Source: an uncultured Planctomycetaceae bacterium
GTDB lineage: Bacteria > Planctomycetota > Planctomycetia > Isosphaerales > Isosphaeraceae
Assembly (NCBI GenBank): GCA_963833985.1
Contig: CAWIAD010000001.1
Span: 2,912,001 to 2,976,000 of the forward strand
Length of the DNA stretch: 64,000 nucleotides
Direction of reading: 5' to 3'
Below the pieces are notes generated by a model. The model saw only the letters and a program-made list of their open reading frames with translations, was not told the DNA's origin and did no database searches. Positions 9,660 to 64,000 of this stretch are shown in pieces; positions within the stretch are counted from its first letter, which is position 1; each line of letters opens with the position of its first letter. The position numbers were made by a program, and so were the translations under genes.

Positions 9660-12600
9660 TTGCCTGATATCCAGCGAGACTTGTTGCTCGCGACCCTGGC
9701 CTTGCTGACCGGCGCGGTGCCCCGGGATGCGCTCCACCGCGCGCTGGTCTCATGGACCAAGGCACCAGACTCCTCCGTGGCCGAACTTCTGCGCCAGCAG
9801 GGGGTGATCGACGACAGCCAGCTCCAGGCGCTTCAGTGTCTGGTCTCGGCTCATCTGCGCAACCACAATGGGGATATTAATTTAAGCCTGAGCGCCTGGA
9901 ATGCGGAGGCACTCACCCAGGACATGCTGACCGAGCTGGAGAATGCAGCGCCCGGAAGCACGATCGCGGCGACCATCGCCGGAAGCCTGACTCCGCAGAG
10001 AACCCGTGCGCCGCAGGGCGAGTCTGATCTGGGAGTGAATGCCAACCTGCCAAGCTACACGCCGGAGGAGAGATTCGAGCTCATCGAGCCGTATGCCAGG
10101 GGGGGTATCGGCCAGGTCTGGCGTGCCCGCGATCGCGAGCTTCAGCGTGAAGTCGCCGTCAAGGAGATCCAGCCGCGGCTCGTGGACCGTCAAGGACTGA
10201 GGAAGCGGTTCCTGCTGGAGGCCGAGATCACGGGCAATCTCGAGCATCCCGGAATCGTGCCGGTCTACAGCCTGGGACGCAACGCCGCGGGACGCCCGTT
10301 CTACGCCATGCGCTTCATCCGGGGCGAGAGCCTTTCCTCGGCGATCAAGAAGTTCCACGCCGCTCGTTCGGGCGCAAGCGAAGCCGCACGCCGGCATTCC
10401 CGGTCGGACTGGGGCATCGAATTTCAGCAGTTGCTGCGCCGGTTTCTCGACGTGTGCGATGCCATGGAGTACGCCCACAGCCGGGGCGTCATTCATCGCG
10501 ATCTCAAGCCGGCGAATATCATGCTCGGCGAATATGGGGAAACCCTGGTCGTGGACTGGGGCCTCGCCAAGCGCACCGGCAAGCATGACGTCGTGGCGGA
10601 GCACGAGGCCACCGAACTGGGGGAGGATGCCGGCGGGGAGTCAACCACGGCCGGCGAGACCCAGCCCGGAACCACCATTGGAACGCCTTCCTACATGAGC
10701 CCGGAACAGGCCCGCGGGACGATCGAAGAACTGGGCCCGGTGAGCGACGTGTACAGCCTGGGAGCCACGCTCTACGAGCTGCTCACGGGAAAATTCCCGT
10801 TCTCGGCAGAGAACGCCGCCGCCATCATCGCCAGGGTGAAAGCGGGAGACCTGGTGGCACCGCGTCAGCTCGTGCCGTCGGTGCCCCCGCAGCTCGAGGC
10901 CATCTGCCTCAAGGCCATGGCCTATCAGCCTGATCGCCGGTACCAGTCCGCCCGTGAGCTGGCGCTGGACCTGGAGCACTGGATCGCTGACGAGCCGGTC
11001 GCCGCATATCCCGAGCGGCCACCGCAGAAGCTGGCCCGCTGGCTGCGCCGCCATCGCAGCTGGACCTATGCCGCAGCCGCAGCCCTCATTGCCATCACGA
11101 TGATCGCGACCACGGCACTGGTGGTGGTGGACGCCGCCCGCCGCGGCCAGGAGATCGCCCGCAAGGAGGCGGAGGGCAATTTTGAAATGGCCCAGCAGGC
11201 CGTTGAAAACTATCTCACCAACGTCAGCGAGAACACGCTGTTCAAGGAACAGGACACGCTCGACATCCGCAACCTCCGGAAAGAGCTGCTCCAGTCAGCG
11301 CTCCCCTTCTACAAGAAGTTCGTCATCGAGCACAGCCACGATCCCCGGCTCCAGGAGCAGCTCGCCAAGGCCTACTTCCGGCTCGGCGACATCACCCGTG
11401 TGATCGCCAGCTCGCAGGACGCCCGCGAGTATTACCGCCTGGCACTGGAGACCTGGGAGCCCCTGGCCCACTCCGACCCCGCGAACCTCGAGCTGCAACA
11501 GCACGTGGCCGATTGCCATTTCGTCTTCGGACAGATCCTCCAGGCCGAGAACCTGCCGGAGGCGATCGCCTTCTTCAGCAGCGCGCTGGCCAGCTACCAG
11601 AAGCTGACCGAGCAGAAACCCTCCGAGGCGCGATACCAGTCCAGCCTGGCGGCATGCTGCTCGGAGCTGGGGCTGTGCTTCTCCCGGCTGGACCGGATCG
11701 ACGAGGCCCTCCAGTTCCTGAACAGGGCCCGCGGCATCCAGGAGCATCTGGTCGCGCTCAATCCCCGCAAGATCGAGTACAAGAAGAACCTGGCCGAAAT
11801 CATCAACCATGTCGGTTACCTCGATTTCACGCGTCGGGACTACCCCGCGGCGCTACAGGTCTACCGGCAGTTCCAGAAACTTTGCCGGGAGATCCTCGAT
11901 GAGCTTCCGGCCGGACCGAAGCCGCTGAACATCCTGGACCTGCTGGCGCGGAGCCATTACAACATCGCGTCCATCGAGCGTGACCAGGGCCATGCCGAGC
12001 TGTCGCTGGAGGCGTCCCGCGAGGCCGAGGAGAACTGGGCCCGGCTTGCCGAGTCGCATCCGTCGGTGAACAGCTACCAGAGCGATCTCGGCCTGGCCCT
12101 GTGGCTGCGAGCCTGGGCCGAGTTCACACTGGGCAAGAGCGCTGATGCCCTCACCTCCGTCCAGAAAGACATCGATATCTGTAATCGGCTGCTCAAGGCG
12201 GAGCCGGGTAATCTTGTCTACCTGATCGAGCTGGCCCACGCGTGGAACCTCAAGGGGGTGATCCATGACGAGGCCCGGCAGAACGATCTGGCGCGCCCGC
12301 CGTTCGAGGAAGCGGTGCGGTTGCGGCGGTCGATCCTGGAGCGTTCCCGCGGCATCGACGAGCACAAGAGAGATCTCTGCGTGAGCCTGGAAAACCTCGG
12401 AGAGGTTCATGTGGACGCTGGCGATGTGCGCGGAGGATTGCCCTTCTACCAGGAAGCCGCCCGCCTCCGTCAGGAGCTCGCCGCATCGCATCCGGGGGAC
12501 TGCCGCGACGCGGCAGAGCTCGTCGAGAAGCTGCTCCTGATCGGCAACATCCAGCGACAGAACGGGGACTCGAGTCTCGCCGCGGAGACCTGCGATCGCG

Positions 12601-13172
12601 CACAAGGCCGTGTGCAACCATTGCATTGCTCCGAGAGCGACAGTCACATTCGTGACCTCTGGCTTGCCGGGGTCCTGGAACGCAAGGCGGGCGCACTTGC
12701 CGACCAGGGCCGAAGAGCCGACGCAATCGGCCTGCTGAAACAGGCCGCGGATCACGCCAGGCAGGCCCTGCGGGCGACGGAAGACGGCACCCGGGCCCGC
12801 GAATTCCTCAGCGAATCGCTCTGGACCCTCGCGCGCCTGACCCGTGAGCAGGGAACCACCAGCACCCCCGACGTGCCCGATGGCAACTGGCGATCGGTCT
12901 GGGACAATCGCCCAGCCGGCGAGCTGGTCGACCTTGCGGTCCGGCTGGCCGCGCGGGCGAACCTCATCGGCTACGGGACCACCCCGGTTCCGGCGATCGG
13001 CAAGGAGATGCGCCGGCTCGATTGCGATCAGGCCGCAGACTGCCTCGAACTCGCGATCCGCCGGGGATACAAGGACTTCGAGCGGCTCAAGAAGAATCCC
13101 GATCTTCGCCCACTGCTGGAGCGCGAGACGCTCAAGCTTCTCATCGCTGGCAAGGAACAGCCTGGCCACTGA
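9660..13172 (+). CDS. Membrane Hanks-type Ser/Thr kinase with C-terminal TPR repeats
   Basis: RGGIGQV, VAVK, HRDLKPAN, DWGLAK, GTPSYMSPEQ; TM helix (AAAALIAITMIATTALVVV); long TPR-like helical tail. TTG start 6 nt after AAGGAG. Confidence 0.93.
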   Translation: MPDIQRDLLLATLALLTGAVPRDALHRALVSWTKAPDSSVAELLRQQGVIDDSQLQALQCLVSAHLRNHNGDINLSLSAWNAEALTQDMLTELENAAPGSTIAATIAGSLTPQRTRAPQGESDLGVNANLPSYTPEERFELIEPYARGGIGQVWRARDRELQREVAVKEIQPRLVDRQGLRKRFLLEAEITGNLEHPGIVPVYSLGRNAAGRPFYAMRFIRGESLSSAIKKFHAARSGASEAARRHSRSDWGIEFQQLLRRFLDVCDAMEYAHSRGVIHRDLKPANIMLGEYGETLVVDWGLAKRTGKHDVVAEHEATELGEDAGGESTTAGETQPGTTIGTPSYMSPEQARGTIEELGPVSDVYSLGATLYELLTGKFPFSAENAAAIIARVKAGDLVAPRQLVPSVPPQLEAICLKAMAYQPDRRYQSARELALDLEHWIADEPVAAYPERPPQKLARWLRRHRSWTYAAAAALIAITMIATTALVVVDAARRGQEIARKEAEGNFEMAQQAVENYLTNVSENTLFKEQDTLDIRNLRKELLQSALPFYKKFVIEHSHDPRLQEQLAKAYFRLGDITRVIASSQDAREYYRLALETWEPLAHSDPANLELQQHVADCHFVFGQILQAENLPEAIAFFSSALASYQKLTEQKPSEARYQSSLAACCSELGLCFSRLDRIDEALQFLNRARGIQEHLVALNPRKIEYKKNLAEIINHVGYLDFTRRDYPAALQVYRQFQKLCREILDELPAGPKPLNILDLLARSHYNIASIERDQGHAELSLEASREAEENWARLAESHPSVNSYQSDLGLALWLRAWAEFTLGKSADALTSVQKDIDICNRLLKAEPGNLVYLIELAHAWNLKGVIHDEARQNDLARPPFEEAVRLRRSILERSRGIDEHKRDLCVSLENLGEVHVDAGDVRGGLPFYQEAARLRQELAASHPGDCRDAAELVEKLLLIGNIQRQNGDSSLAAETCDRAQGRVQPLHCSESDSHIRDLWLAGVLERKAGALADQGRRADAIGLLKQAADHARQALRATEDGTRAREFLSESLWTLARLTREQGTTSTPDVPDGNWRSVWDNRPAGELVDLAVRLAARANLIGYGTTPVPAIGKEMRRLDCDQAADCLELAIRRGYKDFERLKKNPDLRPLLERETLKLLIAGKEQPGH

Positions 13173-13271
13173 TCGCCCGCACCGATCAGGCGGATTTATC
13201 GTGAGCGGCGCCATACGAAAGGACCGCTCTCCGTGCACTGAGTGCGGAATCTCAAGAAAAAAATGGGTTCT

Positions 13272-13297
13272 TGTAACATTCAGGCAGTAAACTCGTA
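13272..13297 (+). promoter_or_regulatory. ECF sigma-type promoter of the peptide gene
   Basis: TGTAAC-N16-CGTA (the AAC/CGT ECF pattern) in an AT-rich stretch about 45 nt before the ATG at 13343. Confidence 0.5.
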
Positions 13298-13342
13298 TCT
13301 CTTTGTAGACAATTCTGCTTCCTATCTCGCAAGGAGCCCGTC

Positions 13343-13498
13343 ATGACGGAACCGAACAAGAATGAGAAATCGACGAGCCGCCCCGAGACCAAGACCGACA
13401 AGAAAGGCTCGGAGACGGTCCATCTCTCGGCTGAAGACCTCCGCAAGATTTCCGGCGGAGCCACAACCGTCCCCGGGACGAAGGGCCCGCACGGCTGA
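13343..13498 (+). CDS. 51-aa double-glycine-leader peptide precursor (not in the ORF track)
   Basis: AAGGAG RBS at 13331-13336. Translation MTEPNKNEKSTSRPETKTDKKGSETVHLSAEDLRKISGG|ATTVPGTKGPHG*. LSAEDLRKISGG fits the LSxxELxxxxGG peptidase C39 motif. The next gene is an NHLP-type HlyD. Confidence 0.8.
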   Translation: MTEPNKNEKSTSRPETKTDKKGSETVHLSAEDLRKISGGATTVPGTKGPHG

Positions 13499-13585
13499 GA
13501 ACTGCGCGGGCGCCGCGGGCGGTCGTCGCCGGATAAGAAGCGGCCTCTATACTGTTCCACCCGCACCTGATGGTTCTCGCACGCT

Positions 13586-13625
13586 GCCCCTGAAATCGCC
13601 GCGCCGAGCGAACAGGGGCTTTTTT
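13586..13625 (+). terminator. Rho-independent terminator after the peptide gene
   Basis: GCCCCTG...CAGGGGC stem followed by TTTTTT. Confidence 0.65.
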
Positions 13626-13806
13626 GTTCGAGCAAGCTGAGCGCAGTGCAGCAGTTGCGGGCCGGTCGGCCCGCACTCGGCGTCTGAGCACGCGCCGTTT
13701 CGTCGCGCATGCCAATCACGCTGCACGAAGCGCGGCTAGTCTAAACTTCGGGGAACTCGACCGGTCCACCAAGGTGACCAGGGCAAACCTTGCAGGGAAC
13801 GAGCCC

Positions 13807-15143
13807 ATGAGCGACTCCGCGACCGAGTCGTCCGGACCTCCAATGGACCTCTCCGGAGTGGCCATGGAACAGCTGGACACGCTGGTCCACGTCACCAACA
13901 TCCAGGCCTGGATTTCGCTCGGCAGCCTCTTCGCCATCTGCGCGGGGGCCGTCCTGTTCGCCTTCGTTTACCGGGTTCCCAAGAAGGTGGTCGGAGAGGG
14001 CATCCTGCTGATCAAGAAAGATCGGCTCAGCCAGATACGCGCTCTGGGCACGGGCCGGCTCGTACGCCTGGACGTATCGCTGGGCGATACGGTCCAGCCG
14101 AACCAGCCCATCGGCGAGATCTACCAGGAAGATCTGCGAGACACCATCCGGGAGACAACCGCCCGGCTGGAACAGCTCAGGAACGAGAACGACCGGCTGA
14201 TCCGCTTCGAGGACGAGGAGCGAACCGCCCAGGACCAGGCGATCGCCCGGCTCAGGGACGCGGTCCAGCGCACCGTGGAGAATGCCACCGAAGGACTGAG
14301 GATCGCGCTGCGGATCGTCGAGGGCTCGGAGCGCTTGCGCCTGATCAGCCAGCTCAGCAACCTCGACTACCTGAAGGATCTTGAACAAAAATACACGATA
14401 CAGAACGACCTGAACAACGGCTACACCAAGCTTGCCGAGGTGGAGCTGACGCGCCTGACCTCGGAGAACCAGCGCCAGCGGCGCGGCTTCAGCGCCAGCT
14501 CGAGATCAGCAAGCTGGTGACGAAGCTTCGGCTGGACCGCGACAAGCTGGATCGGACCTCCCGGATTCTCAGCCATGAGACGGGCACGGTCACCCAGATT
14601 CTCACGGCTGCCGACGAGCTGGTGCGTGAGGGTGCTCCCGTCGTGCTGCTGTCGTCTCCCTGGCGGCCCATGCCGGGAACAGACGCCGACAAGCCCTACG
14701 ATTGCATCGCCTTCGTGCCGGCCGGCGAGGGGAAGAAGATCGACGTCGGCAATTTCGTCGAGGTGATGCCGGCGACCATCAAGCGCGAGGAGCACGGTTA
14801 CGTGCACGGCCGGGTGGTGTCGGTCTCCGAATTGCCCGCCACGCGGCTGGCCATGGAGGCAGCGCTCCAGCATCCCGACCTGGTGGAGACGTTCCTCAAG
14901 AAGTACGCGCCGGGCGTCTTGCTACGCGTGCACATCCAGCTTGTCCCGCGTGAGCCGTCCCCGGACCACGAGAGCGCGGCCGGCGATCCGGAAATCCTCA
15001 ATCGCTTCCGCTGGTCTTCCACCTCAGGCACTCGCCAGAAGCTGAAGACCGCCACGCTCTGCCAGGCCGCCATCGTGGTGGAAAAACAGCGCCTCATCGC
15101 GCTGGTCATTCCCTGGCTGAAGAAGTTCATGGAGCTTCAGTGA
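13807..15143 (+). CDS. NHLP bacteriocin-system secretion protein (HlyD family, TIGR03794-like), split by a 1-nt frameshift near 14481
   Basis: EQLDTLVHVT..AWISL..VPKKVVGEGILL, then a coiled coil, then GKKI..G..VEVMPATIKREEHGYVHGRVVSVSELPAT...WSS..G...TLCQAAIVVEKQRLIALVIP. Adding one G at cgg(g)cgcgg joins the two frames. Confidence 0.85.
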
Positions 15144-15277: not shown

Positions 15278-15588
15278 CGCAATCCATCAGACACATCGCC
15301 GGGCCCCCGGTCCGCACGTCTCGGCGCTCGTGGCGCATGGCCAGGCTGCGCCAGCGCCCTGGATCCGCGGCGCATGGCCACGTGCGTGAGCACGTGGTTT
15401 TCACGGGCGCAGCCTCCAACCTCGGGCGTGAGCCCGACCTGCATATCGCCTCGTCACACCATCCCCCCGGCGCCGGTCCGCCAGTCCCGACGCTCGGCGC
15501 GTATGGCACATGGCCACATGCGTCAGCACGTGGTTTTCACGGGCGCAGCCTCCAACCTCGGGCGTGAGCCCGACCAGAACCCGGCTGA

Positions 15589-16125
15589 CAGCCCTACGAT
15601 CTGGCTGATCTGAACCCGGTGGCCGCAGGGATCGCTGAAGTGCCCGAGGCGAGCACTCACAAGTCGATCAAGCAGCGGGTCGAGCACGTTCAGGAGCAGG
15701 GGCGAGTCGAGGACCTGAAGGCTGCCGAGGCGGGCAGCGTGGCGGGGTCGCAGGCGGCCGCGGGACTGGAAGAAGGCCTGTGGCTGTGCCCGATCGAGGA
15801 CCGCAGGAGGCTGGACTCGGACTCGGACTCCGGTCGCGGTCGCGAGGGGAGGGTCGAGGGGTTCTCGCTGGGCAACTATCTGCTGCTGGTGGACTACACC
15901 GGGCGGCTGTTTCGCGAGGGGAAGGCGGCGATCTCGGCGGAACTGGCCGGGATCCTGGAGCGGCTGGGAAGCAATGCCGAGAGCTGGCAAGCATGGCTGG
16001 CGAAGCTGGCCGGTAGCCGGCTACTGGGTGGGTTCTTCACGGCGAGCCGGGAGCGGCTGCGGGAGACAGCCGGGCGTCTGGGCCGGCATCATCTGGCGAA
16101 CCTGGGCGAGTGCGCGGCGCGGTGA
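15589..16125 (+). pseudogene. C-terminal remnant of a REP-associated tyrosine (Y1/RAYT-like) transposase
   Basis: DLNPVAAGIAEVPEASTHKSIKQR...WLCPIED...YLLLVDYTGRLFREGKAAI..ILERLG. In-frame stop at 15586; the HUH-bearing N-terminus is absent. Confidence 0.75.
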
Positions 16126-16222
16126 AGTGGCGACGACGCGGTGATAAACGTGATGCGGCGCGGTGCTGGTCGGGCTCACGCCCGAGGTTGGAGGCTGCGC
16201 CCGTGAAAACCACGCGCTCACG

Positions 16223-16354
16223 CACGTGGCCATACGCCGCGGAGTCCATGGCGCTCGCGCACGTGGCCATGCGCCGCAGAGTCCATGGCGCTGACGCACG
16301 TGGCCATACGCCGCAGAGTCCATGGCGCTGACGCACGTGGCCATACGCCGCGGA
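16223..16354. repeat. 37-bp tandem repeat, about 3.5 copies
   Basis: CACGTGGCCATACGCCGCAGAGTCCATGGCGCTGACG starts at 16223, 16260, 16297 and 16334, with no spacers. Confidence 0.9.
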
Positions 16355-17333
16355 CGCCAGGACCGGTAGACCAGCGCGCGGCCTTGCGTGCGATGCCACG
16401 ACGTGCGGGTCGGGCTCACGCCCGAGACCCCTGCGCCGCCAGCAGCTCGAGCACCTCGCGCGTGCACGGCGCCGCGCCACCGGAAGAGTCCAGGTCACGC
16501 TGAACCGACGAGATGAGCAGACGCATGGGGCACCTGAGGTGGAAGTGATAAGACCGCGCCGGCACACGCAGAGCACACCGCGGGGAATGTCGCAAACGCC
16601 CGCCGTTTTGATCGTAGACTGAATAAGACGGCACCATGCCGATGCTCTTTGACAACTCGGTCGATGGTTCAAATCAGCGCGACGCCCCGCAGCCAGGCGT
16701 CGCGCTGGCCGGAGGGATCTCCGGCAAGCCTCGCGGCCCACCACATGACATCCCGAGAAAGCAACGCGAAGATCGAAGCCAATCGAAAATGGAGGTTCAA
16801 GTTCAATCAGGCAAATGGTTAACGTCCGATGGCTTCGTTGCGCGATGGACAGAACGAAGCCATTTCGGGCAAGTCTTCGCCGGTGGGCGTACGAGCAGAC
16901 AAGCTGGTCCACCCGCACCGCTGTGAGCCAGGCAAGGCTGGAGGTGGTGGCGTCCTTCCGGAGCGGGCGTGCGAAGTTCTCGCCGCGGCCGGTGGGTGCC
17001 GATGGGACACGGAAACGGCTTCGGCAGCGAGATCGGGTACTGTGAGGGATCCGGCGGCCTGGGCGGCCCAGGCGAGGTCGCGAGGCGCACGTGATTCAGG
17101 GGCTTCCGTTCCAGCAATCGTTGAGGTTTGCGCGAGACGGACACACCGTGGGGATTGGGTAAACGAGGTGGGCGCTGGCAAGGCACTCCTTGACGCAGCT
17201 TGCTTGATTTGCCAGGCGCGACGGGGCGCGCATGCCGCGAGGCGGGTTGGGCTCATTCCAGCGCGCGATCGATCCGATACGAAGGTGGATGGAGCGGCGT
17301 GTGGCCAGCAGAGCAAGGGAGAGCAGGCCAGAG

Positions 17334-20404: not shown

Positions 20405-21733
<1,329 letters not shown>

Positions 21734-50824: not shown

Positions 50825-51211
50825 CCGGGTGCGATCGCGACCCGGCGCAGCACGGAGCGACCGTCCGGTCCGGGTGATCGAAGGGCTGTGGCGATGGTTG
50901 CCGGACCGCACAAGGGGAAATGAGCGCGCAACAAAAACAAGTTGCGTCCGCATTTCCGTCCTCGTTTGAATACCATCCAGGGTCCCGACGAAAGAATGAC
51001 AAAGTCCAGCTTCCCAGCACCTGTCGCACGCGAAAAAAGTTCAGCAGCGATTTTGTCGCCCCAATTCAGCTTGGCATTCGGCCTCACGAAGCGCCTCCCC
51101 AATTCAGCTTGAAACGGAGCCTCGCCAAGAATAATATGTTGATGCCCTTTCTTTCTCGTGGTTCTCCTAGTGAGTTAGACCCCGCCCCCCTGGTTTAGAT
51201 AAGGTTTGGGC

Positions 51212-53242
51212 ATGCAAGCTCAGGAAGCCCGGCTTCGAAAGCTTATTGAGGGCACGACGCAGTACGTCGTGCCCCTTTTTCAAAGGCCTTACAGCTGGTC
51301 GGAAAAGCAGTGGAAAACCTTGTGGGATGATGTCACCGAGCAAGCCGCCCATGACGACGCGCGGCCTCATTTCTTAGGCTCGATCGTCACCGCGCCCGCG
51401 AAGTCGGTGCCGGAGGGTGTGGGGAAATATCTGCTGATCGACGGCCAGCAGCGTCTGACTACGATGCAGGTCCTGCTGGCGGGCTTGCGCGACACAGCCG
51501 GAGCGAATGGTCACGACAGGCTCTGCGAAAAGGTTAACGGCAAGTTCCTCCTCAACACTTACGAGGAAGAGGATGAACAGTTGAAAGTGCTCCCCACGCA
51601 GGATGATCGGGCGGCGTTTCGATCTATCATCCGGGGGGAGAAACCGCCTGCGTCACGACTCGCCGATGCCTATCGCTTCTTTCAAGGCAAGCTCGCCCCA
51701 TTCAAGAATGACTCTGAGCGGCTGGAACGCCTGCTCACGGCAATCACCGATCGGCTGTCTCTCGTCAGCATCACATGCGACGAGCACGACAACCCACACC
51801 TCATTTTCGAGAGCCTGAACGCCAAGGGCGAGAAGCTGACACCCGCCGACCTGATTCGGAACTTCCTGCTAATGCGGGTGCACGTGAACGACCAGAACCG
51901 GGTCTTTGCACAGCACTGGCTGCCGATCCAGCAGGCGCTTGGCGACAATCTGACTGAGTTCGTGCGACACTACTTGATGAAGGGAGGGAAGATTCTCACA
52001 GCAGCTGATGTCTATTTTGAACTCAAAGATCGATTGATCAATGCCAATGCGGCAGCGGCGGAGGCGTTCCTTACTGATCTGCATCGGCATGGGATGCTGT
52101 ACGCGCGGTTCGTCGACCCAACGCGTGAGCCCGACCCCGTGATAGCCGCCTCGCTTTCGCGTTTGCAACGATTGGAATCGACAGTGGCTTACCCATTGCT
52201 GCTCAGGGTTTTCGACGCGATGGATCAGGGCAAATTAACGCGTGTCCAGGTAGCCCAAACGCTCGATGTGCTCGAATCGTTCCTCATTCGGCGATCGGTC
52301 TGTGGCCTGCCGAGCAATCAATTGCGTCGGATGTTACCGCCGGTGTTCGATGCGGCAGGCGGGGCTTGCGATGGGTTTGTCGATCAACTGCGTTCGGAAC
52401 TCGGCGGAAATCGGTGCCCAGATGACGCGGCCTTCACTACGGCTCTGACAGTTCAGCCTCTATACGCAACCGCCAAGAAGAACGCGCGGCTTCGTGTGAT
52501 CCTTGAGCGGATGGAGGAGTCGTACGAGCACAAAGAGCCTGCGAACCTATCGTGCGCGCAGATCGAGCACATCATGCCGCAGACACTGACCCCGGAATGG
52601 GAGCACAAACTTGGCCCGCAGGCGCGCGACCACTGGGCTCGGCTGTTGCACACGCTCGGCAACCTCACCCTGACCGGCTACAACGCGGACATGAGTAACC
52701 GGCCGTATGTGGAGAAGCGTAAAGCGTTCACCAGCAGCCACTTCGAGCTCAACCGCTACTTTGCCAACGCCGAGACGTGGACGGCTGACGCGATTGAAGC
52801 ACGCGGGCGGGCACTGAGCGAGCTCGCGACGAAGATCTGGCACGACTTAGTGAGGCCTGACACGCCTCAACCAGGAGGATTACCATTCGAGCCAAAACCG
52901 GTCGCTGTGAGGTTTCGGAATCAGGAGGAACCGGTCACGAGTTGGAAGCAGGGCGCACTGAAGTTGATCGAGTGGTTCGAGGTCGCCTGGCCCGGACTGC
53001 TGGTAGAACTGGAACGTAAGCAGGTGATTACGAGCGTATTGTCGGTAGACGCAAGTCGATTTGTCCGATCACGTGGCCAGATCGGCGGGGTGTATGTGCA
53101 GATGCACGGATCGGCCAAAACGCTACGGACCTATGTGAAGTGGATTGCGCAGGAGGCAGGGATCGGGGAATTCGAGTACGAGTTTGTGCTGGGCGGCTTC
53201 AAAGGGCAGGGCGATTGCGCCATAATGGGTAATTTGGCATGA
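51212..53242 (+). CDS. gmrSD: GmrSD-type modification-dependent restriction endonuclease (DUF262 + DUF1524); native 3' end displaced by IS insertion
   Basis: VPLFQRPYSW, LIDGQQRLTT, IFESLNAKGEKL, IEHIMPQ, LGNLTL..YN..MSN. The last 11 residues are read from the ISAs1 left end. Confidence 0.88.
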   Translation: MQAQEARLRKLIEGTTQYVVPLFQRPYSWSEKQWKTLWDDVTEQAAHDDARPHFLGSIVTAPAKSVPEGVGKYLLIDGQQRLTTMQVLLAGLRDTAGANGHDRLCEKVNGKFLLNTYEEEDEQLKVLPTQDDRAAFRSIIRGEKPPASRLADAYRFFQGKLAPFKNDSERLERLLTAITDRLSLVSITCDEHDNPHLIFESLNAKGEKLTPADLIRNFLLMRVHVNDQNRVFAQHWLPIQQALGDNLTEFVRHYLMKGGKILTAADVYFELKDRLINANAAAAEAFLTDLHRHGMLYARFVDPTREPDPVIAASLSRLQRLESTVAYPLLLRVFDAMDQGKLTRVQVAQTLDVLESFLIRRSVCGLPSNQLRRMLPPVFDAAGGACDGFVDQLRSELGGNRCPDDAAFTTALTVQPLYATAKKNARLRVILERMEESYEHKEPANLSCAQIEHIMPQTLTPEWEHKLGPQARDHWARLLHTLGNLTLTGYNADMSNRPYVEKRKAFTSSHFELNRYFANAETWTADAIEARGRALSELATKIWHDLVRPDTPQPGGLPFEPKPVAVRFRNQEEPVTSWKQGALKLIEWFEVAWPGLLVELERKQVITSVLSVDASRFVRSRGQIGGVYVQMHGSAKTLRTYVKWIAQEAGIGEFEYEFVLGGFKGQGDCAIMGNLA

Positions 53243-60187: not shown

Positions 60188-63100
60188 TCACATGACTTGC
60201 CGGTGCACCAGCTCCTGGAATGGGCCGGGCTCGGCCAGAAGCTGATGATAGTCTCCGGACTGGACGATCTGTCCCGCCTTGACGACGTAAATGCGATCGG
60301 CATCGACGACCGTGGTGAGTCGATGCGCGATCACGAGGCGCGTGATGCCCCGCAGTTCCCGGGTAATGCTCTGGGTGACAATGGCCTGAGTCACGTTGTC
60401 CAGGGCGCTGGTGGCTTCGTCAAACATGAGGATCCTGGGGCGGCGGACGATCGCCCGCGCGATCAGGAGGCGCTGTCGCTGCCCGCCCGAGAGGTTGCCT
60501 CCCCCTTCCCCGACGAGCGTGTGCATGCCCATCGGAAAAGCCTGGATGTCCTCGTCCAGGCCGGCCAGCTTCGCCGCCTTCCAGGCATCTTCCATCGTCA
60601 GGTCAGAGGCGAATCCGACAATGTTGTTGAAGATGTCTCCCGGCAAGAGCTGGGCGTTCTGGAGCACCACGCCAATCTGCCGGCGGACCTCGCGCAGGTC
60701 CAGGGTCGTGAGCTCGCGGCCGTCGTAGGTGACCGTGCCGGCGATGGGAGCCTCGAAGCCGAGCAAGAGCCGGAGGATCGTCGACTTCCCCGAGCCCGAG
60801 GCGCCGACGATGGCCACGAACTCGCCCGGGCGCGCCTGGAGGCTCACATCGCTGAGCACCTTCGATCCCTCGTCCTGGCCCGGGTACCGGAACGAGACGC
60901 CGCTCAGTGCCAGCGCACCGCCAAGTTGCACCGGCTCCAGCACGCCGGCGGGAAACTCCGGCTGGCCTTCCAGGATCGGCTTGATGCGTTCATAGAGCGG
61001 AGGCAGATCGAGCAGGCCCATCACCGTGTACGCGGCCGCCAGCAGCGCAGTGATCATGCTCGCAAGCGCGATGGTGAAGGCGAGAAAACCGCCCGTGCTG
61101 AGCCGGTCGCTGCCCAGGTGGATGGCACCGAAGTAGACCACCATCGCAATCAGCAGCGGGAAGACGGCCAGGAACATGTGCAGCAATCGAGCATACCGGC
61201 GCGACCGGATGACCAGTGCAAGCTGGCTGGCGTAGCGGGTCGCCCAGCGTCCGAAAGCGCGGTTCTCGGCGCCGGCAGTCCGCAGCTTGGAAATGCCTCC
61301 GACGATCTCCAGCAAGAAGCTGGTGAGTGACCCTTCCAGCTTGCGGATCATCGCTTCCTGGCGAAGCTGCCCCGCCAGGATGACGGCGGTCACCGCGAGC
61401 ATGACGACCAGCAGCAGCATGCAGACGAGTGCCAGCCGCCAGCTATACCAGAAGAGCAGCCCCAGGTTGAAGACCGAGAGCAAGCTGGTGACCAGGGTGG
61501 AGACCACCGCGCCGGAGATCTTCTTGAAGATGAGGCTCAGCCCCATGGCCCGGAGCGCCAGGTCGCCGGAGGAGAACGTGCCGAAGAACCGCGTGGGCAG
61601 GCGGAGCAGCCGGTCCCAGACCGCGGGCACCACGGCGGGAACGATCTTCCCCTCGATGCGCAACAGCGCCAGGCCGCCGACCACCTGGAGGATGGTCGTC
61701 ACGACCGCTATCCCCACGAGGAACAGGCACAGCGCCAGCAGGGTTGTCCGCCCGCTCTCCGGCAGGTCCACCTCGGGAATGACCTGGTCGATGAGGATGC
61801 CGGAGCCGATGGGTACCGCCAGCCCGAAAACGCCGCCGATGAGCGCCAGCAGGAAGAGCAGCCGCAGTTCGCCCCGCACCCGCGGCAGGCTGAAACGAAG
61901 CAGGTCCAGGAGGGTGAGCCGATGATCGGGAAGCGTGGGGTAGAGCATCCAGGCCCGCCGCGCCACGCGACCGGCGAGGGTTCCGGTCACGGGCAGGCGG
62001 CGCTCGGCCGTGGGGTCCACAAGCTCGTGGCGGGACGATGCGAACCACCGTGCCTTCCTGACCGGAAGGATGGCCACGGGCCTTCGGTCGTCGTCGTTGA
62101 ACTGGCCGAGCAATGGCTCACTGAGTGGACGGGTCGCCCAGTCCGCCGGCAGGTTCACCTGCCGGAGGTGGAACCCCGACGACCGGGCGATCTCTGCCAG
62201 CGTCTCGCCGGCCGCCTCTCCCTTCTCGTCCTGGCTGCGCCTGGGCTGGCGGACCTCGATGCCCTTGGCCTGGCCGACAGCCCGGCAGGCGGCGAGCAAT
62301 TCGTCTCCGGCCGTACGAGTGAAGGGAACGGTCGTCTCGTTGGCCACGGCGGCGAGCCTGGCCGAGAAGCCGCTCACGAGCGAGCGCTCGCCGGCGACGG
62401 CTCGTTTCAGCTCTTCCCAGCGGCGCCTGGCTTCACGATCCTCCGAGCGGCCGATCTCGTCGAGCACGACCCGATGAAAGTCCTTCAAACCGGCCCACGG
62501 GTCTCCCGACCGCACCATGGTCAGCGTGTCGGTCGCCGTGACCCGGCAGGACACGCCGGCCGTCAGCCAGAGATACTCGCAGAGAGGGAAGCGTGGCTCC
62601 AGCTCGTTCACGGGAAGCGTGGCTCCATCCAGGAACCGCGACGATCCCTCGAGATGGCGGATCCAGCCGACGCCTTCGCGAATCGCATAACGCGCACCTT
62701 CGGCCAGCTCCATGGGCGTGGACAGGGCCAGGTCCTGACGTGGCTGGGCCGGCGCCACCAGGCTCAGCGCTCTGCCCACCCTGAGAATCCAGTCGTCGAT
62801 CAGCAGTGCCACCTGCACGGCGAGCTTCTCCTCGAAGCCCAGACGGATGAGGTCGCCGCGCGCAAACCGCAGTAATTGAGCCGTACCCACGCCGACAGCC
62901 ATCAGGCCGCCGCCGAGGTGCCCGCGAACGCCGCTGATGGCAAAGATCGAGCCGCCTTCCTCGACCCGGCAGAGGTGGCGACGGCGGCCCTGGATGCCGT
63001 CCGGGCCAGGAAGCGTGAAGAAGACATCCACCTGGCCGCGGGTGATCCACCAGACTGATTCGGGGTCGTCCAGCGGCAAGGGACGGTTCGCCGCGGTCTC

Positions 63101-64000
63101 CTCGCCCTCGCTGAACGGTGTGAGCTCCTCGATGAGGAAACGGGGCAGCTCCAGGTCGTCCGGGCCGGCAACCCGTGCGTGGCCGTCCTGCGGCCCGGTG
63201 AACCCAAGGCCGTCCCCGCCCGATCCCAAAGGTTCGAGCACGCGCGCGCCGGAGACGCCCGCGGCATGGTCGTGTGCGACGGAGACCCGGTTGCGGCCGC
63301 GAAACCTGGACTGAAATCGCTCCAGGGGCAGCCGTGGCGGGCGCTGCGCGGTCGTCTCCTGGCTGGCCAGGAGCCGGGCGTACTCCCCGCTGGGGTCAGA
63401 CATGAGCTGGTCATGCGTGCCACGCTGCACCGCACGCCCCGCCGAGAGGACGATGATCTCATCACAGTCGCGGATGGTTGACAGCCGGTGCGCGATGATC
63501 AGGCACGAGCAGCCCCGCCTCCGCAGATGGTCGTCGACGATGGCCTCGGTTCGTGAATCCAGTGCGCTGGTGGCCTCGTCCAGGACCAGCAGACTGGGGT
63601 CGCGCACCAGAGCCCGCGCGATTTCCAGGCGCTGCCTCTGCCCGCCCGAAAAATTCCGGGCGCCCTCGGCCACCACGGCGTCGTAGCCGCCACGGCGCAG
63701 CAGCAGGTCGCGATGGATTGCCGCTCCCAGGCCCGCCTGGATCAGGCGCTGGCTGCTCGTTCGTTCGTCCCACAACGTCAGGTTGTCCCGAACGGACCCT
63801 TCGAACATCGCCACGCGCTCATCGACCATTGCCACGGAGCTGACGAACAGCTCGCGGGGGATCTGGTCGATCGGCCGGCCGTCGTGCAGGATCTGCCCGC
63901 TCCAGGGCTGATAGAGCCCGACGACCAGCCGCGCGATCGTGGTCTTGCCGCTTCCCGAGCTGCCCACCAGCGCGATCCGCTGACCCGGCCGCACGATCAG
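60188..64000 (-). CDS. NHLP bacteriocin-system ABC exporter, partial (5' end outside the window): TIGR03796-like NBD fused to a TIGR03797-like subunit
   Basis: NBD1 (GSSGSGKT, FSGGQRQRLEIARAL, LDEATSALD, CDEIIVL); cNMP-like PLPLDDPESVWWITRGQVDVF; TMD (VWDRLLRLPTRFF..SSGDLALR); NBD2 (GASGSGKST, LSGGQRQRL). No stop codon between them. Confidence 0.88.
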   Translation of the reverse strand: MIVRPGQRIALVGSSGSGKTTIARLVVGLYQPWSGQILHDGRPIDQIPRELFVSSVAMVDERVAMFEGSVRDNLTLWDERTSSQRLIQAGLGAAIHRDLLLRRGGYDAVVAEGARNFSGGQRQRLEIARALVRDPSLLVLDEATSALDSRTEAIVDDHLRRRGCSCLIIAHRLSTIRDCDEIIVLSAGRAVQRGTHDQLMSDPSGEYARLLASQETTAQRPPRLPLERFQSRFRGRNRVSVAHDHAAGVSGARVLEPLGSGGDGLGFTGPQDGHARVAGPDDLELPRFLIEELTPFSEGEETAANRPLPLDDPESVWWITRGQVDVFFTLPGPDGIQGRRRHLCRVEEGGSIFAISGVRGHLGGGLMAVGVGTAQLLRFARGDLIRLGFEEKLAVQVALLIDDWILRVGRALSLVAPAQPRQDLALSTPMELAEGARYAIREGVGWIRHLEGSSRFLDGATLPVNELEPRFPLCEYLWLTAGVSCRVTATDTLTMVRSGDPWAGLKDFHRVVLDEIGRSEDREARRRWEELKRAVAGERSLVSGFSARLAAVANETTVPFTRTAGDELLAACRAVGQAKGIEVRQPRRSQDEKGEAAGETLAEIARSSGFHLRQVNLPADWATRPLSEPLLGQFNDDDRRPVAILPVRKARWFASSRHELVDPTAERRLPVTGTLAGRVARRAWMLYPTLPDHRLTLLDLLRFSLPRVRGELRLLFLLALIGGVFGLAVPIGSGILIDQVIPEVDLPESGRTTLLALCLFLVGIAVVTTILQVVGGLALLRIEGKIVPAVVPAVWDRLLRLPTRFFGTFSSGDLALRAMGLSLIFKKISGAVVSTLVTSLLSVFNLGLLFWYSWRLALVCMLLLVVMLAVTAVILAGQLRQEAMIRKLEGSLTSFLLEIVGGISKLRTAGAENRAFGRWATRYASQLALVIRSRRYARLLHMFLAVFPLLIAMVVYFGAIHLGSDRLSTGGFLAFTIALASMITALLAAAYTVMGLLDLPPLYERIKPILEGQPEFPAGVLEPVQLGGALALSGVSFRYPGQDEGSKVLSDVSLQARPGEFVAIVGASGSGKSTILRLLLGFEAPIAGTVTYDGRELTTLDLREVRRQIGVVLQNAQLLPGDIFNNIVGFASDLTMEDAWKAAKLAGLDEDIQAFPMGMHTLVGEGGGNLSGGQRQRLLIARAIVRRPRILMFDEATSALDNVTQAIVTQSITRELRGITRLVIAHRLTTVVDADRIYVVKAGQIVQSGDYHQLLAEPGPFQELVHRQVM

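Follow-up and report, generated by a model that had tools for sequence, protein, structure and literature searches.

What is the role of a very small gene that lies between a membrane Ser/Thr kinase and a peptide export adaptor in a planctomycete genome? The gene, at positions 13343-13498, is found in a 64,000-nucleotide stretch of DNA (the window) from an uncultured Planctomycetaceae bacterium of the family Isosphaeraceae (assembly GCA_963833985.1, contig CAWIAD010000001.1, positions 2,912,001 to 2,976,000). A first-pass annotation, made from the letters of the window, proposed that it encodes a peptide with a double-glycine leader, either an unmodified pheromone sensed by the tetratricopeptide repeat (TPR) tail of the adjacent kinase or a Thr-phosphorylated product of that kinase. 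Judged by its sequence, the gene encodes a double-glycine precursor, and the best reading of the locus, which we hold tentatively, is that of a secreted peptide signal read by the adjacent TPR kinase.

A short double-glycine precursor gene

The 51-residue open reading frame (ORF) at 13343-13498 on the forward strand has the translation and AAGGAG ribosome-binding site first reported for it, and its codon-usage score is +8.4 in its own frame and negative in all five others, as for a real gene. A strict double-glycine leader pattern matched twice in the whole 10.2-Mb genome, and a profile of the precursor family matched once, at this gene. Pfam and NCBIfam hold no family for the precursor (best match DUF5841, E 0.08), and no NCBIfam model matched it up to E 1, including TIGR03793 and TIGR03798 for NHase- and Nif11-like leaders; the positive control for this leader test, another precursor (L048), scored 72.3 on TIGR03793. 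An ESM Atlas search with the precursor returned unnamed clusters only, at 0.88-0.91, and an Rfam scan gave no meaningful match.

The other match to the strict pattern is a short ORF (G000:C2:1489927-1490133, forward strand) with an AAGGAG site, a double-glycine-like leader end and a 29-residue Gly/Pro/Ser-rich core. It lies far from any exporter and has no score on the family profile.

The leader is conserved and the core is variable

The precursors form a large, uncatalogued family. Protein searches with the family gave 158 matches, at least two of them labelled Isosphaeraceae bacterium; 332 clusters at 50% identity matched its profile, and members are present in 32 of 121 Isosphaeraceae genomes. 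All 32 fall among the 33 genomes with a TIGR03794 adaptor, an overlap that is partly by construction since the profile was built from adaptor-adjacent precursors; the informative part is that none of the 88 adaptor-less genomes carries a precursor, with related genomes not independent and the positive genomes mostly large ones. The sole adaptor genome with no precursor of this family (G005) has a classical NHLP precursor instead. In a wider sample of 401 genomes of the phylum the adaptor was present in 30 and, by eye, within 1.5 kb of 29 of these adaptors, long Nif11/NHLP-like precursors were seen at three and short-leader ones at three.

Comparison of the leaders reveals two types. The kinase type, to which the window gene belongs, ends in (E/D)TVxL(S/T)xx(E/D)LRxI(S/A)GG and is usually single copy, and the dispersed type ends in ELTD(D/E)EIAxVAGG and reaches 14 copies per genome. 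Among 25 kinase-type leaders, Leu-12 is kept in 24 and Leu-7, Ile/Val-4 and Gly-Gly in all 25; Leu-12, Leu-7 and a hydrophobic residue at -4 are the leader positions that the consulted part of PMC6363468 describes as bound by LahT. The last 17 leader residues are 59-100% identical across the compared pairs. Two close pairs had core identities of 85% and 53%, and most of the other ten pairs were near or at the shuffle level; cores were 85% identical where the adaptors were 88% identical and at the shuffle level below about 75% adaptor identity. A conserved leader with a variable core had been anticipated, and a core that is kept among very close relatives and diverges beyond them would be as expected of kin-specific signals.

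The composition of the core is strongly constrained despite its hypervariable sequence. We assembled 101 distinct kinase-type cores, from which two obvious read-throughs were dropped and in which pattern sorting misfiled a few. All contain Pro, 63 contain Pro-Pro and 93 are net positive; Ser and Thr make up about 17% of residues, Cys occurs in two cores, 16 lack Thr and seven lack both Ser and Thr, and no Ser/Thr position is conserved among the 101. Lengths range from 9 to 47 residues (median 20), with few aromatic or large hydrophobic residues and no shared motif. In composition the cores may resemble the Pro-rich peptide hormones of plants.

Other arrangements of precursors were also seen. 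Four sequences (P0121, P0180, P0206, P0220) contain tandem double-glycine leader-core repeats, up to nine, with Cys in some cores, and at two loci (L217, L221) precursor genes lie between sulfate adenylyltransferase-like genes and an unannotated 632-residue protein.

A frame-split adaptor and a fused exporter

The adaptor beside the peptide is TIGR03794-like, as predicted, and is frame-split in the assembly, which the first-pass annotation overlooked. Relative to two relatives one base is absent near 14480, a deletion that shortens a G run. The halves score 87.9 and 124 bits on TIGR03794 (cut-off 156.2; intact relative, 204.6) and keep 77-81% identity to close relatives. The frameshift is likely an assembly error, because 13 of the 63 assembly genes matched by a congener's proteins are split in the same way. 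Among sequencing runs none with RNA was listed as containing this genome, and contigs from one run with a small share of it do not span the frameshift. An enolase-like gene (20405-21545, reverse strand) is also split into two frames, consistent with the indel rate of the assembly.

The ATP-binding cassette (ABC) exporter was correctly assigned to the NHLP type but had been placed at 60188-64000, whereas it extends beyond the window to 65605 as a single 1805-residue polypeptide in which both ABC parts are fused, a fusion absent from the first-pass annotation, scoring 1259 bits on TIGR03796 (cut-off 853.3) and 1115.7 on TIGR03797 (cut-off 709.4). The C39 domain foreseen for it is present at the N-terminus, is closest to LahT (6MPZ, E 1.7e-36; ComA structures are also among its matches) and has an intact protease triad, with Gln33, Cys39, His112 and Asp128 all in place. 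In this genome the adaptor is the only one of its type, the exporter is the best C39 match and TolC-type genes are plentiful. By analogy with known families, the leader would be cleaved after Gly-Gly and the peptide exported via the adaptor and a TolC-type channel. For the middle region of the exporter the idea of a cyclic-nucleotide-binding-like fold found no sequence match in the PDB.

The exporter lies 45 kb from the adaptor, is inverted and adjoins IS701, IS1634, IS4 and ISAs1 transposases. It retains 60 bases of its own upstream region, and relatives often have genes inserted between adaptor and exporter. A single inversion of about 50 kb (15143-65700) would restore the usual adaptor-exporter order; the present layout may reflect either a rearrangement or a misassembly.

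The adjacent kinase and its gene order

The kinase comprises a kinase domain (about residues 146-460), a membrane helix (about 480-502) and an all-helical TPR superhelix (about 505-1175) that is predicted to be periplasmic. Catalytic motifs and one hydrophobic segment are kept in all six intact copies, and in the AlphaFold model (pLDDT 88) the 676 residues past the helix form a TPR superhelix like those of OGT and LGN. The available portion of PMC11032199 gives a kinase domain inside and TPRs in the periplasm as the rule for planctomycete kinases, with TPR function mostly unknown, and credits planctomycetes with dozens to hundreds of such membrane kinases; this genome holds 101 Ser/Thr-kinase-like ORFs.

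The kinase-peptide-HlyD order put forward at first is conserved across relatives. Among precursors with 3 kb of upstream sequence, 21 of 27 of the kinase type have the end of this kinase gene within 1.2 kb upstream and on the same strand, compared with 3 of 42 others, two of these three being kinase-like leaders misfiled by pattern. In all, 22 genomes from 12 genera have the kinase immediately upstream of the precursor, 21 of them with the adaptor after it, and Aquisphaera insulae JC669 (L340) shows an identical kinase-peptide-adaptor-exporter order. Kinase, peptide and adaptor were relocated jointly from a gdh to a suf neighbourhood, amounting to about one change of neighbourhood. In a FastTree phylogeny, with frame-split genes joined by X, peptide-adjacent kinases of the window type all fall in one 43-row clade that they share with many peptide-less paralogues. 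With 29-51% identity against 63-80% for the kinase domain, the ectodomain is the faster to diverge. Co-folding of the ectodomain with precursor residues 22-51 scored 0.02, which is evidence neither way. A kinase was seen by eye near dispersed precursors at about 9 of 20 loci, which is not above the expectation from 324-547 kinase candidates per genome.

A conserved promoter and a candidate sigma factor

A simple scan of the window locus found neither a sigma-70 promoter nor a terminator; the extracytoplasmic function (ECF)-type promoter of the first-pass annotation has its support solely from conservation. Fourteen of 20 kinase-type precursor genes are preceded by the motif TGT(A/T)AxA-N15/16-CGTA, against none of the 14 others first examined and 0.45% of shuffles, for a pattern that was read off the same sequences first and then recurred in loci outside that set (L229, L156, L047, L072). 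Genome-wide, just 8 of 4483 regions upstream of genes contain it, and it also precedes five dispersed precursors in one other genome (G032). The proposed terminator fares similarly: the window hairpin taken alone is not significant (z -1.32), but 10 of 20 related loci have a hairpin with a T-run, compared with 14 of 300 shuffles. Such a hairpin would yield more peptide than exporter message.

The promoter motif is also found before an ECF sigma gene (G000:C1:2639301-2639930) that is followed by a zinc-finger kinase. The strict motif precedes 11 of 30 orthologues of this sigma, and most of the remainder show, by eye, a variant that differs at one base. The layout, by which the assignment was judged, fits ECF62, a planctomycete group with a kinase at +1 that has an N-terminal zinc finger, and for which the consulted part of the PMC7826278 supplement reports no conserved promoter; the motif is a candidate autoregulated promoter of this ECF62-like group. 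Kinase activation is predicted for planctomycete ECF59-62 in the portions of PMC8999054 and PMC7826278 available, and the former treats sigma activation by a kinase as demonstrated for EcfP and as a proposal for EcfK, the sigma in control of a type VI system.

Across the Isosphaeraceae, the sigma and zinc-finger kinase pair (G000:C1:2637755-2639930, reverse strand; L307) has a strongly conserved upstream motif. At three loci (L059, L061, L065) kinase-associated ECF sigma genes are divergent from clusters of dispersed-type precursors.

A proposed secreted signal read by the kinase

We propose that the C39 domain of the fused exporter would cut the leader and that a short, likely unmodified, Pro-rich cationic peptide would be released, probably as a signal specific to the species and directed at the neighbouring kinase's TPR ectodomain. 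The peptide would re-enter the periplasm, bind the TPR groove and switch the kinase, which may act, directly or not, on a kinase-coupled ECF sigma such as the ECF62-like one above. The upstream motif of this sigma resembles the peptide promoter, and could close a feedback loop. A wider proposal is possible, if more doubtful: Isosphaeraceae would make ribosomal peptides as pheromones, their receptors being single-pass Ser/Thr kinases of the eukaryote-like kind, and a phosphorylation-activated ECF sigma would provide the feedback; the same leader and promoter would serve, in addition, a dispersed set of peptides cut from Hcp, the tube protein of the type VI system. If true, this would join self-signalling with mimicry of attack signals and provide the first ligand class for the numerous orphan TPR kinases of planctomycetes.

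Several observations weigh against this signalling proposal. A pheromone sensed by the TPR tail is plausible, but kinase and peptide also occur apart and gene order here is generally stable. Adjacency counts for little because unrelated neighbours also stay put, with gdh still next to the kinase at 12 of 22 loci and sufR at eight. Seven of 34 genomes with this ectodomain have neither adaptor nor peptide, and three of these keep the kinase at the suf site; conversely, peptide and exporter persist without an upstream kinase in three genomes of a single genus, and a precursor is absent beside 39 of 40 further loci of the kinase subfamily. The fast change of the ectodomain is not specific, because this genome has 101 kinase-like ORFs and TPR ectodomains are common in such kinases (PMC11032199, in the portion available). 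The candidate sigma has its own kinase and, being present in 63 of 121 genomes, is not dedicated to the peptide system; the promoter pattern was originally read off the very sequences that it describes. Finally, a type I system exports past the periplasm, so the re-entry of the peptide must be assumed.

Comparison with known systems

The streptococcal ComC/ComAB/ComDE pheromones comprise a double-glycine precursor, a peptidase exporter, a variable core and a nearby membrane receptor gene. The window cluster has the same elements, probably with autoinduction, and may work like a ComC-type pheromone cassette on an NHLP-type exporter. In contrast to ComC systems, a Hanks-type Ser/Thr kinase bearing a TPR ectodomain takes the place of the histidine kinase as candidate receptor, an outer membrane surrounds the host cell and the output would be an ECF sigma; a histidine kinase at 17232 lies outside the conserved cluster, in which the conserved neighbour is the Ser/Thr kinase. 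RRNPP receptors are cytoplasmic TPR proteins that bind re-imported signal peptides. They likewise use a TPR superhelix as a short-peptide binder, which here is predicted to be periplasmic and joined to a kinase.

EcfP/PknT and EcfK/PknS (ECF43; PMC8999054, PMC7826278) also couple a membrane Ser/Thr kinase to ECF-type promoters, but the available portions of these sources describe no self-made peptide ligand for them, and here the sigma lies outside the cluster. The NHLP/N11P cassette (TIGR03794, TIGR03796 and TIGR03797), as far as PMC2887384 was available, has the same three components, with the ABC parts here over their cut-offs, and shares a double-glycine leader that has Leu and Ser/Thr where they are usually found; here, however, the two ABC genes are fused, the leader is short, unstructured and Lys/Glu/Thr-rich, the cores are almost free of Cys and the cluster has no YcaO or LanM. 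Class II microcins, in the part of PMC12219008 at hand, share export of an unmodified double-glycine peptide from a Gram-negative cell by a peptidase-containing ABC transporter, a membrane fusion protein and TolC, whereas the cores here are much shorter, have no adjacent immunity gene and use an NHLP-type rather than a CvaAB-type exporter.

By these comparisons, the system is not a member of the families of NHLP/Nif11 ribosomally synthesised peptides with post-translational modifications (RiPPs), because the leader matches neither family and the enzymes are absent, nor of the class II microcins, because there is no immunity gene, nor of the histidine-kinase pheromone systems. Literature searches, with subscription journals thinly covered, gave no description of the kinase-peptide-adaptor cluster, of Hcp-derived cores or of an NPQPLPP core motif, and bacterial signalling of this kind was not found in the literature searched. 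The system would be categorically new if the receptor link holds. Even if that link fails, the family shows NHLP-type exporters serving short, enzyme-free peptides. The cluster supplies a candidate ligand whose sequence is known and which can be made synthetically, and it has a cultured carrier in A. insulae JC669, which makes the question directly testable.

Alternative explanations

The exported peptides could instead be mimics or decoys of protein epitopes, such as those of Hcp, aimed at other cells or receptors, with the kinase only regulating the operon or being a mere neighbour. We regard this as unlikely but deserving of serious attention. With 57 planctomycete Hcp domains as targets, 18 of the 279 distinct cores gave better alignments than all 60 shuffles, compared with three of 279 for control proteins, and the 18 tile different parts of Hcp. 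The promoter motif before the five dispersed genes ties both groups to one regulon, and a second copy at a kinase locus (L053) has Hcp-like pieces by eye. However, 17 of the 18 Hcp-like cores have the dispersed leader type, away from the kinase, no source for the window core turned up in the proteome of its own genome (best E 0.91), motif matches in that proteome are not in excess for the cores overall (39 of 279 cores, 106 of 560 shuffles) and VgrG gives no signal as a source of cores (2 of 279, one target). As far as these alignments go, Hcp mimicry is a property of the wider family, and the core of the window gene has no such source. This wider set of paralogues with Hcp-derived cores escaped the first-pass annotation.

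The dispersed paralogues (L209-L243; genomes G024, G025, G028-G030, G032, G042 and G043), up to 14 per genome, are often paired. Several of their cores are Hcp pieces, one core matches DUF1559 proteins in the region of their H-X9-DG motif, and NPQPLPP is a recurring motif. The window genome has a type VI secretion gene cluster at G000:C2:1182976-1196752 (Hcp match; neighbours named by eye).

Could the core be an unmodified, cationic, Pro-rich antibacterial peptide, like a very short class II microcin? The shared export route (PMC12219008, in part), the Pro content and positive charge of the kinase-type cores and a fast core turnover that fits an arms race are consistent with this, but the annotated loci have no conserved gene for a small membrane immunity protein next to the precursor, and the short cores, nearly devoid of aromatic or large hydrophobic residues, have no common motif. 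We consider an antibacterial role improbable.

We rate as equally improbable a modified RiPP, whether the modification were phosphorylation by the neighbouring kinase or tailoring by the product of a gene elsewhere. The kinase domain lies in the cytoplasm and appears active, about 17% of core residues are Ser or Thr, a large Ser/Thr kinase accompanies NHLP-Burk precursors in the available part of PMC2887384, and there is one LanC-like gene in the genome, far from the cluster. Against this, the genes between or beside adaptor and exporter vary by genome in 16 annotated loci, which contain no conserved tailoring gene and no YcaO or LanM, in line with the initial remark that no RiPP-type enzyme accompanies the peptide. 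The only enzyme-like repeats among these loci are TPR-sulfotransferases near the exporter in two (L057, L061). YcaO had no match in the 96% complete genome, a search that did not extend to radical SAM and hydroxylase families, and a periplasmic domain of about 670 residues is unneeded for modifying a cytoplasmic precursor. A phosphorylated or heterocyclised RiPP is disfavoured because the annotated loci have no conserved tailoring enzyme and the cores no conserved Ser/Thr; the Thr-phosphorylated alternative of the first-pass annotation, set against the Thr-less cores, is unlikely.

Least probable is that the family is real but the window copy inactive or its core nearly neutral, with a truly broken adaptor and an exporter that moved away: the one-base deletion, the distant, inverted exporter beside four transposases and the shuffle-level core identity to congeners would fit, but the many split genes of the assembly, the shortened G run, the well-kept adaptor halves, the retained exporter upstream region, the common intervening genes of relatives and the constrained core composition argue otherwise.

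Features of the window

Table 1 Coordinates of the peptide cluster and its export genes in the window
Feature	Position	Strand	Remarks
Single-pass Ser/Thr kinase, 1180 residues	9630..13172	+	Pfam Pkinase and TPR; start likely GTG 9645
ECF-type promoter, TTGTAACA-N15-CGTATC	13271..13299	+	Conserved
Ribosome-binding site AAGGAG	13331..13336	+	From sequence; GGAG-type sites at the same place in relatives
Leader, 39 residues, ending in ETVHLSAEDLRKISGG	13343..13459	+	Leu-12, Leu-7, Ile-4, Gly-Gly
Core, 12 residues, ATTVPGTKGPHG, and stop codon	13460..13498	+	1121.58 Da monoisotopic
G+C hairpin then six T, likely terminator or attenuator between peptide and adaptor	13586..13625	+	
TIGR03794-type HlyD adaptor, frame-split in the assembly	13807..15143	+	Halves 13807-14520 and 14517-15143
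3' part of fused peptidase ABC exporter (C39, TIGR03796, TIGR03797)	60188..64000	-	Start at window-equivalent position 65605

Two further features were seen in the window. An 85-base repeat, in three copies at 15361-16300 and 111 genome-wide, surrounds a transposase-like remnant (15619-16125), and a fused GmrSD restriction gene (51206-53242) lies beside the insertion sequence cluster.

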